Positions 1-5,745 of a stretch of DNA of 38,217 bases are shown here, piece after piece (positions within the stretch are counted from its first letter, which is position 1; every line of letters starts with the position of its first letter). The notes beneath the pieces were generated by a model. The model worked only from the letters and a program-made list of their open reading frames with translations. It searched no databases and had not been told where the DNA came from. The DNA lies in the IMG/VR virus record IMGVR_UViG_2547132077_000001, positions 1-38,217 of that record, one strand, 5' to 3'. Origin of the DNA: a virus (Duplodnaviria > Heunggongvirae > Uroviricota > Caudoviricetes). Position numbers and translations under genes: made by a program.

Positions 1-290
1 GGTGGAGTGATACACCTTAACTATCGAATAGCACAAAGTCTTGCAATCCAGTGCAAAGCTTTGTTTGTCTCAGTTTTGTCTCATCAACCACAGCAAGTCA
101 TAGATCGATTAAGGCTTGGATGATAGACTTCATGCTTTTGATTACTGAGTTGCTTCATGCAGTCATTAATTGCGCCTTGCACATGCTACCTATGTGTCTA
201 TTCTAGGTGTTTACAATCATGCACAGCATCCTCAGCATTACAATTTCACCCAAATAACTTAACATGTGTTATACATTATGAGGAGCTTTA

Positions 291-1302
291 ATGAGCGAGC
301 GAAATAATTCATTTGATATAATTAGACATATCGCCGCCTACATGGTTTTATTTTCTCATCACTTCAGGTTATCTGGTGATCATGAGCCTTGTTTTTCTTC
401 AATGGGATAGTTATGGTGCGGTCGCAGTTGCAATTTTCTTTTGTTTATCTGGTTTCTTAATGCCAAAAAGTTTTAATTCATCTGGTTCGTTTATCGAGTT
501 CATGAGGAAAAGGTGTCTGCGTATATTTCCTGCATTATTTGTATGCTCTGTTGTTATGTATTTATTTGTCGCAGTAGAATTTAACTCCAATAATAGTTAC
601 GCATATTTATTTTCTTCCCAGCCATACTTAAATATCATAAGAAATACTGTTTTCCTGCAGAGTTATGTGGATGGAGTGTTTTCTGATTACTTTTACCCTC
701 ATGTTATTAATGGAAGCCTTTGGACGCTGCCTATAGAATTTTCATGCTATCTAATAATTGGCCTTGCGCTCTCTATATCGTTCACATGGGTCGGGCCTGC
801 TTTATTATTAGTTACATGCATACTTTCCACAATAATTTTCAACTTCTATCCTGAAAATTACACATATTTTAGTGTGCCTTTTAAATCATTATCATTATTT
901 GGCATGCCATTCTTTTTTGGTGCTTTATTGTCAATGACTACTGAGTCATGGTTGAAGTATAAAAAGCAAGTGTTAATTACTGCCTTATTGTTGCTTATTG
1001 CCGTGACTGGTAAGCCGGAAATACAAATTGTAGCGCCACTATGTTTGTCGGTTATAGTTATTGTTCTTGGCCTAACCATTAAAGACAGGGTTATAAACGG
1101 AAGGATTGATATATCTTATGGTTTGTATATATACGCATTCCCAGTACAACAGATTATTATAAATAATATAACTAATAAATTCATCCCATCCATAGCTCTT
1201 AGTCTTTTTGCAACTACATTACTGGCGACTGTTTCTTATTATTATATCGAAAAGCCGTTCTTAAGAAGAAAGAGAAAAGAAATTATAGTAGCTGAAGGTT
1301 AG
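291..1302 (+). pseudogene. oac: Acyltransferase-3 family membrane protein (O-antigen acetyltransferase-like), split by a frameshift: N-terminus in frame 291..410, remainder in frame 376..1302
   Basis: ATG at 291 preceded by AGGAG (281-285) encodes MSERNNSFDIIRHIAAYMVLFSHHF, a typical acyltransferase-3 N-terminus, then hits a stop at 408-410. The 308-aa track ORF in the +1 frame carries the rest of the polytopic membrane protein (AVAVAIFFCLSGFL motif) but has only a GTG start. The switch maps near a T5 run at 391-395. The symbol is inferred from position next to the tailspike. Confidence 0.55.
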
Positions 1303-1313
1303 TGTTGTTTACT

Positions 1314-1338
1314 GGGGGGGGTATTGCCCCCTTTAATT
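1314..1338 (+). terminator. Intrinsic terminator downstream of the acyltransferase gene
   Basis: GGGGGGG-tattg-CCCCC hairpin followed by TTTAATTTA, directly after the stop at 1302. Confidence 0.5.
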
Positions 1339-1799: not shown

Positions 1800-3860
1800 C
1801 TATGGGGTTATATAATCATAATCCGACTTCATCCTTTCAGTTTCAGCGTAGCTAAAAGTATTAGCCGCTCCGCACAGGCCAAAGCGACCTCTGTTCATGC
1901 GATGCCCTGTGACAAAAATATTAGTAGAGTATGGTGTTGTGGCTCCGATCTCTACAACTATACATGATTTAGTATTTTCAACCCCTGAAACTCCAACCGT
2001 AAAGGTCATTTCCTTCCACGAGCCTCCACCTACTAATGTTTTTGAAAGTAGTGTAGTTCTTGCTCCATTGTCATTTGCTACATATATGTGCACTAAAAAT
2101 GTTAGTTCAACATCAGCGTTAAACAAAGCCTGGACTGTCACTGCCTCACCATTCACCAAGTCGGCTCGTGGATGTTCGAATATAATCGATGTCGTTGCAC
2201 CAGCATCACTAAGAACAGATGCAATATAACGACTCATTCTCAATGCATTGTTTGGAATCCCTGCACCACTCCTAGTAAACACTGTATTAGATGTTGATCT
2301 TGCAAACCATCCAGGAGCCACAGCAGTTGATGAGTTGGGAGGAATACTTACTGTGCTGTTCTCTATATAAATAATGTCACCATTCAGAGCTGGTATATTT
2401 GCATTGTATTTATCAATAACAGAAACATGGTTAGATGTTAACGGAAGAAGCGGCATATTTTCAGCGACAATCCTTCCGGCAACAATCTTTTGATATGGCA
2501 AATCGTTAATTGATATTATTGGCTGAATAAAACCTGACCCTGGAATATTTGAAATAAATACCTTGTCAACCTCCAAATAGTTCATTATCACATCATCATT
2601 CCCAGCAACAATTATTCTGTTTGAGTTTATGCCATGTAAATTAGCATAAACATCATTTATAGTGATGTCAGTCAGTATCTGCTGCGATGTCGTTTCTGAA
2701 TCGCCAATTTGTACGACTTGTTGGTGTCCAAATGCCATCTCGCAATAAAGTCCATCAACTGAAGAAAACGTTGATGGATATCCAAAAATAACGCATGTTT
2801 TTGCATTCTGTGCGGAGTTGTCTTTTATTCTCGTTGCGACAGCAGATGTATATGACATAATGCCAGTACCGACAGCGCTACCACCCTGCCATGCACATCT
2901 ATTAAATGCAATAAAAAGCCTACTATTTCCTGAATATCTATCTGTTGTGTTACCGCCATCATCAATTGCCTTGACAAAATTATTGGCGTGATCGTTATAT
3001 TCCATGTATGTATTATTTATAATATGTGGCCACCAATTTTGTGCTTTAAAATTAACTACCCACTCGTTGCTATCTTCAGGATTGATAACACGACATTTCT
3101 CTACTGTTGCCATATGAGATGTCCACGGCTCAAATTCAACAAGCTTTGCCGTGCCACCATCCATCATTACATTTCTAATTTCATAGCTGTCTTGAGAAAA
3201 AAATGCTGATCGCTGATCTATACCATCCATGCCCATAGAAAATATTGGTCCAATGTCACTATTTATTGGATCGCATACAAACTGAAAATCAACATGCGTT
3301 GGAGTTTTAAACGTATATCTGCCAAGTTGAAAACCATCTTCATGAATCGGGTTCCAGCGCTTATACCCTGAATATCCTTCTGTAGGTGGTGGATTTGGCC
3401 TTTCATCCAAACTTTGGATTAGTTCAAACTCATGTTCCAAGCTTCTTAGCGAATCGCTTACAGTTCCTGCGCCATCTCCAATATATGTCGAACCTTCGTT
3501 CCCTGTCAGTAAAACTTTGAACTGATCCGGGTCATACTTCAGCACATTCGGAAAATAAAACTGCTGCGCCCCATACGCATCATAAACAGCCATGGAATGG
3601 CCTTGCACAGTTACGAACTTGGCAATCTGTCCGTTATATACCGGATATCCGGCAGCGTTAATGATGATTGGTTGCGATACAGGAACATGAGAGCCGTCTT
3701 CGTTCTCCACATAAACCTGAATCTGGTTTTCAGGGTTTACCGGGTCAGTGTCAATTTTACCGATATAAATTTTGCCATTGGCTACGGCTTTAAAAGAACG
3801 AGCCATAGTGAAGAGTTGCGAAGGCATCGATACGATCACATTGGCTGTAATGTCTGTCAT
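1800..3860 (-). CDS. Tailspike protein: P22/Sf6-type N-terminal head-binding domain fused to a divergent receptor-binding domain
   Basis: First ~115 aa ([46 protein letters not shown]...VLKYDPDQ) match the conserved head-binding domain of P22-like tailspikes as I recall them. The remaining ~570 aa I do not recognise. Position at the end of the virion block next to ant is as in P22. Confidence 0.9.
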
Positions 3861-3918: not shown

Positions 3919-3942
3919 AAAAAAACCCAGCCGAAGCTGGGT
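3919..3942 (-). terminator. Intrinsic terminator between ant and the tailspike gene
   Basis: On the minus strand: ACCCAGC-ttcg-GCTGGGT followed by TTTTTTTA. Confidence 0.7.
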
Positions 3943-5409: not shown

Positions 5410-5745
5410 ATGAGATTTCTATCACTGTTCTTGTTAGCAGTTGTCTCTTCTTCCAGTGCTGAGCTGCGCGAGCTTCAAACGGGTAATGACCTTCTTTACA
5501 ACATTCAACAAGGTAAAAAGGGTGATGATTTTTCATCGCTTTACATTACTGGATATTTGCGCGGAGTAACTGACTCATTGATACTAATTGGTTCTCTATG
5601 TCCTCCTGATGGCGTTGACATGTATCAATACACCGATATCGTTGAGAAATATCTAAACAAAAACCCAGAATCAAGAAATGAGAGTGCAGTTATACTAACC
5701 GCCCTAGCAGTAGGAAAAACATTTCCGTGCAAAAAGAATCAATAA
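5410..5745 (+). CDS. Small secreted protein of unknown function (signal peptide, two Cys in mature part), translationally coupled to mnt
   Basis: ATG at 5410 lies 1 nt after the mnt stop. N-terminus MRFLSLFLLAVVSSSSA is a signal peptide. Occupies the slot between mnt and the ejection-protein genes where P22 carries sieA-type exclusion genes. Confidence 0.7.
   Translation: MRFLSLFLLAVVSSSSAELRELQTGNDLLYNIQQGKKGDDFSSLYITGYLRGVTDSLILIGSLCPPDGVDMYQYTDIVEKYLNKNPESRNESAVILTALAVGKTFPCKKNQ

Follow-up and report, generated by a model that had tools for sequence, protein, structure and literature searches.

The locus studied here raises the question of whether a phage gene predicted to modify the O-antigen has been inactivated beside a tailspike gene, or whether its recorded sequence is at fault. 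It lies near one end of the window, by which we mean the whole stretch of 38,217 nucleotides that was analysed. The window is itself a complete contig, with a run of 100 N adjoining either end, in the draft pseudo-chromosome of Escherichia fergusonii ECD227 (CM001142.1), a gapped assembly of about 2011. Beyond this locus the window consists of a P22-like (Lederbergvirus) genome, a prophage of the P22/HK620/Sf6-like kind, and its virion and late genes share 96-97% DNA identity with those of HK620, N7 and Sf6. The case is an ordinary one: a P22-like prophage has a conversion gene of the Oac type in which one extra base marks either a recent knockout or a mistake in the consensus.

Reading frames, homologues and gene identity

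As listed in Table 1, the acyltransferase gene is divided between a short upstream ORF and a longer ORF in the +1 register. The initial annotation had described these two frames at 291..410 and 376..1302; both sets of coordinates hold, and tblastn comparisons agree with them. Each intact homologue aligned with the window in two pieces, residues 1 to ~35 in the register of position 291 and residues 34 to the end in the register of position 391. The N-terminal piece gave E values of 3e-13 to 7e-14 for proteins that are 44-58% identical and of 8e-8 for Sf6 Oac. Judged from the sequence, the split is present and lies far beyond chance resemblance.

Table 1. Features of the acyltransferase locus, its neighbours and the contig boundaries. 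Positions are those of the window unless another locus (L003, L004) is named.
Feature	Position	Strand	Description
Shine-Dalgarno AGGAG	281..285	+	5 nt 5' of the ancestral start ATG 291; read from the sequence
5' fragment ORF	291..410	+	39 aa, ATG to TAG 408-410
GGTGATC	375..381	+	directly before ATG 382; 7-nt complement of the 16S rRNA 3' end (GAUCACC)
3' body ORF	376..1302 (GTG 376, 308 aa) or 382..1302 (ATG 382, 306 aa)	+	+1 register
Frameshifting lesion	389..390	+	TT where intact alleles have one T; +1 insertion; from DNA alignments with L001, L002 and L086
T5 run	392..396	+	391 is G; run unchanged in the window, L001, L002 and L086; not the indel site
Terminator	1313..1335	+	G8-TATTG-C5 hairpin with T-rich tail, between the convergent acyltransferase and tailspike genes
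Tailspike gene	1800..3860	-	686 aa; PF09008; convergent to the acyltransferase gene
111-aa gene	5410-5745	+	just 3' of mnt, same strand, immI region; precomputed Pfam match PF18602
100-N gaps at window ends 1 and 38217	L003 9520-9619; L004 11698-11797		
Scaffold neighbour, one side	L003 4013-9472		end of O-antigen cluster: wzz, ugd, gnd, acetyltransferase-like gene, GT2 gene
Scaffold neighbour, other side	L004 11798-20771		cut-off lambda-J-like gene, then lambda-like tail operon

The upstream ORF contributes 33 homologous codons, which encode the first transmembrane helix (TMH1) with R12-X10-H23; six out-of-frame codons and a TAG follow. The downstream ORF, read from ATG 382, is homologous to intact proteins from residue 34 (nucleotide 391) onwards and bears FFCLSG (residues 49-54) and R74-x-x-R77. 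Its 306-aa product is annotated as EGC95629.1 / WP_002432305.1 (ECD227_1867) and named 'acyltransferase' in RefSeq. Both registers are open over positions 322-407, and the T5 run falls inside this stretch. The AGGAG element before the upstream ORF is largely conserved in intact Escherichia coli alleles, being identical in prophage locus L001 and altered by one A-to-G change at 284 in prophage locus L002. The GGTGATC heptamer before ATG 382, which presumably pairs with the 3' end of 16S rRNA, may by chance serve the 306-aa ORF as a ribosome-binding site; in intact alleles the same bases are plain coding sequence. A promoter scan gave matches no commoner than in shuffled sequence.

In all homologues examined, close and distant, neither a split nor a frameshift was seen. 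The best 120 database homologues listed were almost all 318-418 aa long and their alignments, which take in the N-terminus, covered 90-100% of the repaired protein; the coverage was 80-81% for two that are shorter. Similarly, 79 of the 80 listed IMG/VR relatives matched residues 1-5 to ~327-336 in one segment. Intact 336-aa alleles are recorded on about a hundred contigs (29, 32, 24, 7 and further ones within the cluster). Those from E. coli (P0133, P0001 and P0122-P0124) are 98-100% identical in protein to the repaired product, carry a single T at the site in question and encode one 336-aa protein. The prophages that carry intact alleles occupy two or more different chromosomal sites in E. 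coli, L001 lying by ybhB/bio and L002 by hldE/ibs. These two loci, which are carriers of P0001, share 97-98% DNA identity with the window over the acyltransferase gene and the tailspike sequence present in them, and their upstream region and terminator are the same as in the window.

Some short members that are not marked as partial were also present in the 90% cluster of P0001. P0125, found in at least four NCBI accessions (MCV5254396.1 and related), is 71 aa long and ends in ...SFIEFR, and P0131 (EFN9660849.1) is 280 aa long and starts at M57. Each may reflect a separate event that disrupted this gene in E. coli.

Profile searches establish the identity of the gene. The repaired protein matched PF01757 (AT3, Acyl_transf_3) with 72.3 bits against a cutoff of 31, over positions 1-325 of the 326 in the profile; the 308-aa ORF alone scored 62.1 bits and matched profile positions 42-325 only. 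The repaired protein also matched PHROG 3333, 'O-acetyltransferase', with an E value of 1.6e-41, and NCBIfam returned no family for it. The R/K-X10-H motif of TMH1 is present as R12-X10-H23 and is invariant in 36 aligned homologues. The FFxxSG motif is FFCLSG at 49-54 and the RxxR motif of loop 2-3 is R74-C-L-R77, with F49, F50, S53, G54, R74 and R77 all invariant (alignment A2). With 336 aa in all and Pfam coverage of residues 5-316, the protein has no room for an SGNH domain. In a crude hydropathy scan eight hydrophobic segments stood out clearly, but TMH1, which is charged, was missed; the family has about ten transmembrane helices. By these features the repaired protein is predicted to be a membrane acyltransferase of the AT3-only kind and of Sf6 Oac type.

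Sf6 Oac (gene 15) is 333 aa long, compared with 336 aa here, and aligned over residues 3-331 with 36-37% identity (E 5e-51). The two proteins have the same R-X10-H, FFxxSG and RxxR motifs at matching positions. The setting also corresponds. The window gene sits beyond the tailspike gene, on the margin of a temperate, P22-like genome, in the gene order of Sf6; there oac, a terminator and a convergent tailspike gene form the same layout, and the Sf6 genome, also P22-like, has virion genes ~96% identical in DNA to those of the window. In Sf6, Oac transfers an acetyl group to the O-antigen, the polysaccharide that is recognised by the tailspike. The initial annotation had read the window gene as an O-antigen acetyltransferase-like AT3 gene beside the tailspike; the PF01757 and PHROG 3333 matches, the homology to Sf6 Oac and the gene order all bear this out, and homology and position together point to the O-antigen as its probable substrate. 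The sugar and the position acetylated need not match those of Sf6 because the identity is only about 36%. There are two differences at the locus. Sf6 oac is intact whereas the window copy is frameshifted, and in Sf6 int lies directly 5' of oac, whereas in L001 and L002, the relatives of the window prophage, host DNA begins within ~0.6-0.7 kb upstream.

Other conversion systems resemble the window gene in part. P22 gtrABC sits in the same slot beyond the tailspike gene, and in HK620 that slot, convergent to and just past the tailspike gene, is taken by hkcF, which is O-antigen polymerase-like. The gtrABC products (glucosylation) and HkcF (polymerase) are unrelated to the window gene in protein and in chemistry. 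OafA and OafB (GtrC family II) of Salmonella have the same AT3 domain with the TMH1 R/K-X10-H and RXXR motifs, but they are AT3-SGNH fusions in which a periplasmic SGNH domain does the final transfer, while the window protein is predicted to be AT3-only like Oac. Mutagenesis has shown both motifs to be essential in OafA and OafB (PMC7448272).

The extra T and its predicted consequence

An alignment to intact homologues, which the initial annotation had proposed as a check, placed a single +1 indel at 389-390. Where the window reads GAGCCTTGTTTTT, intact alleles read GAGCCTGTTTTT. The copies used were L001 and L002, which are E. coli prophage copies encoding the intact protein, and L086, a human-gut metagenome contig. 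In the alignment, GAGCCTTGTTTTTC of the window stands opposite GAGCC-TGTTTTTC in all three, and this is the sole indel within the gene. The switch of frame had been assigned in the initial annotation to the vicinity of a T5 homopolymer at 391-395. The lesion is indeed close by, but the homopolymer itself occupies 392-396 and is unchanged. An indel inside the T5 run was accordingly rejected, the run having the same length in intact alleles.

Deletion of one T yields a 1011-nt ORF that encodes 336 aa, with 100% identity to the intact E. coli protein P0133 (ENK3129898.1). The repaired ORF differs from the coding sequences of L001 and L002 by 15 and 14 nucleotides, respectively; these correspond to 10 and 9 synonymous codon differences, respectively, and to five non-synonymous ones in each comparison. 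No second defect was found in the repaired gene when it was compared with L001, L002 and P0133. If the extra T arose by mutation, the neighbouring base would have been duplicated, and very recently, secondary decay having yet to begin.

As written, the window copy lacks the intact reading frame expected of an enzyme of the Sf6 Oac type. The extra T would shift the frame after codon 33, so that translation from ATG 291 would reach the stop at 408-410 after 39 residues. What remained would be the 306-aa ORF from ATG 382, whose product would be without transmembrane helix 1 and the R-X10-H motif. The conserved residues lost from that product can be named. N6, F8, R12, A16, V19, H23 and P33, which are invariant in 36 homologues of 33-98% identity, are encoded only in the 39-aa fragment. 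The R/K-X10-H motif was common to all bacterial AT3 proteins examined in a study in which OafA retained 0.07% of its activity after R14A and 0.33% after H25A (PMC7448272). Because the 306-aa product starts after TMH1 and is without R12 and H23, the counterparts of which are essential in OafA, the allele is, as it stands, very probably null, a loss of function that we deduce by homology. The O-antigen of the lysogen would then be left unmodified by this gene (window 291..1302).

The distribution of the two alleles was examined in several collections. Exact-pattern scans of IMG/VR and of the GTDB species representatives gave no match for either the T or the TT allele, and the same scan of JGI/ENA metagenomes gave one match, to the intact allele. 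The exact 306-aa product was found on one record only, CM001142.1. The gene was absent at 80% identity or above from 50,697 phage records, in which only window bases 1-144, att-proximal non-coding DNA, were matched, and no near-identical DNA was present in 5,426 complete E. coli genomes.

Mutation, consensus error and other readings

We give about an even chance to the reading that the extra T is a real and very recent mutation in ECD227, which would make this a null allele of an Oac-type conversion gene. That the extra T is a sequencing or assembly artefact, present only in the draft consensus of a strain that has an intact 336-aa gene, is a serious competitor to which we give somewhat less than an even chance. 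An artefact would fit a gap-flanked contig of a draft pseudo-chromosome, but consensus indel errors are rare here. About two dozen HK620 proteins, of 89-100% identity, aligned at full length with a sole gap in the terminase small subunit gp3; the tailspike and gp16 showed no indels relative to L001; and the called genes on ~20 kb of neighbouring contigs showed no obvious truncation other than that of a J-like gene cut at a contig end. Since no other frameshift was detected in comparable genes over the ~38 kb contig and the ~20 kb of neighbouring contigs, the frameshift rate of this assembly is at most ~1 per 58 kb. The extra base lengthens a same-base run two positions before the T5 run, a site prone to overcalling if the platform was 454. 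The sequencing method is not stated in the papers that mention the strain or the accession; 454 pyrosequencing was probably used for the ECD227 genome. With 454 chemistry, carry-forward in the context T-G-TTTTT can inflate the first T flow. Yet an overcall from one base to two is uncommon at the consensus level, and the five runs of at least five identical bases in the gene (T5, A5, T6, A5 and T5), all of them longer than the affected run, are correct. The allele is otherwise pristine, reaching 100% identity to an intact E. coli protein once a single base is removed, and TT is unique to one record as against intact alleles on roughly a hundred contigs and in the sole metagenome match, all of which suits an artefact. 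For a mutation, on the other hand, it can be said that duplication of an adjacent base is a common spontaneous event, and the 71-aa and 280-aa members of the cluster suggest occasional disruption of this accessory gene in nature. We lean slightly towards a real mutation over an assembly error and so infer that the strain itself carries the extra T.

The remaining readings accept the split and give it a function, or deny that it is a lesion. Activity of the split gene, either by reassembly of the 39-aa TMH1 peptide with the 306-aa body or by a +1 slip on U5 that gives a full-length protein with V34C, is improbable. The two ORFs do together encode every homologous residue (1-33 and 34-336), and each is preceded by a Shine-Dalgarno-like sequence, in the case of ATG 382 the GGTGATC that directly adjoins it; however, no homologue examined has a split or a frameshift, so there is no sign of selection for such an arrangement. 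The shared open stretch around the T5 run would permit a slip, and at 393-396, the only such place, tRNA-Phe could move from UUU to UUU and pair anew in the +1 frame. The next 0-frame codon after UUU is, however, an ordinary UCU, neither a stop nor a rare codon, and five T are too few for slippage to be efficient. At the prfB +1 frameshift site the Shine-Dalgarno spacing is 3 nt, against 11 nt between the Shine-Dalgarno-like element and the slip site here. Programmed frameshifting is very unlikely, as the split is not conserved among homologues and the site has no slow codon or stop and no properly spaced stimulator. Overall, the chance that the gene is still active by one or the other route is slim; if it were, the O-antigen of the lysogen would be acetylated, though to a lesser extent. 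Still less credit is due to a phase-variable (contingency) switch, in which slippage at a repeat tract would turn the gene ON and OFF. Surface-modification genes, some AT3 genes included, are phase-variable in other bacteria, and the lesion does lengthen a same-base run. The tract is nevertheless only T versus TT, the T5 run shows no variation across the window, L001, L002 and L086, and the OFF state occurs in a single record; a hypermutable tract with both ON and OFF alleles was not found. Least credible of all is a native arrangement of two genes, in which the family would start downstream and the upstream ORF would be a separate small gene. The RefSeq entry for the 306-aa ORF, an ordinary 'acyltransferase' (WP_002432305.1), would agree with it, but it is refuted by full-length coverage in the listed homologues, by the single-segment matches of 79 of the 80 listed IMG/VR relatives and by conservation of the N-terminus. 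The initial annotation had named homologues that start downstream, with a small ORF upstream, as a finding that would overturn a frameshift; the listed homologues are single full-length ORFs, which excludes that scenario.

The significance of the locus depends on which of the two main readings applies. If the T is real, the P22-like prophage of ECD227 has lost O-antigen conversion very recently, an event of a frequent kind, as natural inactivation of surface-modification genes is common, and one that bears only on the serotype of the strain and on whether its own phage re-adsorbs. Should the T be an error, the matter is one of annotation hygiene: the 306-aa 'acyltransferase' WP_002432305.1 would be an N-terminally truncated artefact, or else a pseudogene product. 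The suggestion in the initial annotation that an inactive conversion gene in an O-antigen-altering phage is biologically notable carries little weight, as null alleles of accessory conversion genes are commonplace and the source is a gapped draft assembly.

Tailspike module and prophage setting

Residues 1-116 of the neighbouring tailspike form a P22/Sf6-type head-binding domain, with Sf6 gp14 and P22 gp9 as solved relatives; no solved sequence relative was found for its receptor-binding part. Casjens et al. (PMC4424284) count a tailspike of an ECD227 prophage, which may or may not be the one encoded at 1800..3860, as one of the nearest relatives, at 33-45% identity overall, of Det7 tailspike receptor-binding domains. 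The tailspike module of the window is 97.6% identical in the E. coli prophage L001, and in E. coli prophages, which occupy two different chromosomal sites, the tailspike and the acetyltransferase travel together at ~97% identity. Because it is shared in this way, the module of tailspike and acetyltransferase is a reasonable candidate for finding the O-antigen that the pair targets.

Between the two genes, the homopolymer runs of the terminator hairpin differ among the copies, being G8/C5 in the window, G9/C6 in L001 and G7/C6 in L002, so that homopolymer length at 1313-1335 varies, whether naturally or by error. A similar difference was seen at window position 3926, between the tailspike gene and ant, where the window has A7C3 and L001 has A7C2. 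Four of the five indels that separate the first 4 kb of the window from L001 are intergenic, and three of these four are one-base differences in run length. As most of them are of this type, the intergenic indels relative to L001 are unhelpful for judging assembly quality.

The immI genes arc, mnt and ant were found in the window; int, xis and att were not found in the contig. The integration site and the completeness of the prophage are thus unreadable from the window, a contig without integrase, excisionase or att that is bounded by gaps. Insertion of the prophage in the O-antigen cluster was considered, as gnd and a GT2 gene lie to the left of the window in CM001142.1, and was rejected: a 100-N gap intervenes and the window is a whole contig. 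The neighbours across the N gaps, suggestive at first sight, reflect scaffold order and are no evidence of linkage.

Two minor features were noted. Window positions 1-144 are non-coding and are 89-94% identical to short stretches in HF4s, N7, Gally, mEp234 and Stx phages; in these lambdoid and P22-like phage records the matching stretches have no annotated feature. This segment may be a shared recombination or boundary sequence, which is a possible reason why the assembly broke there. In the immI region, the 111-aa gene that follows mnt matches PF18602, that is Rap1a, a type VI secretion immunity-protein fold, and PHROG 3870, whose function is not assigned; it is possibly a moron.
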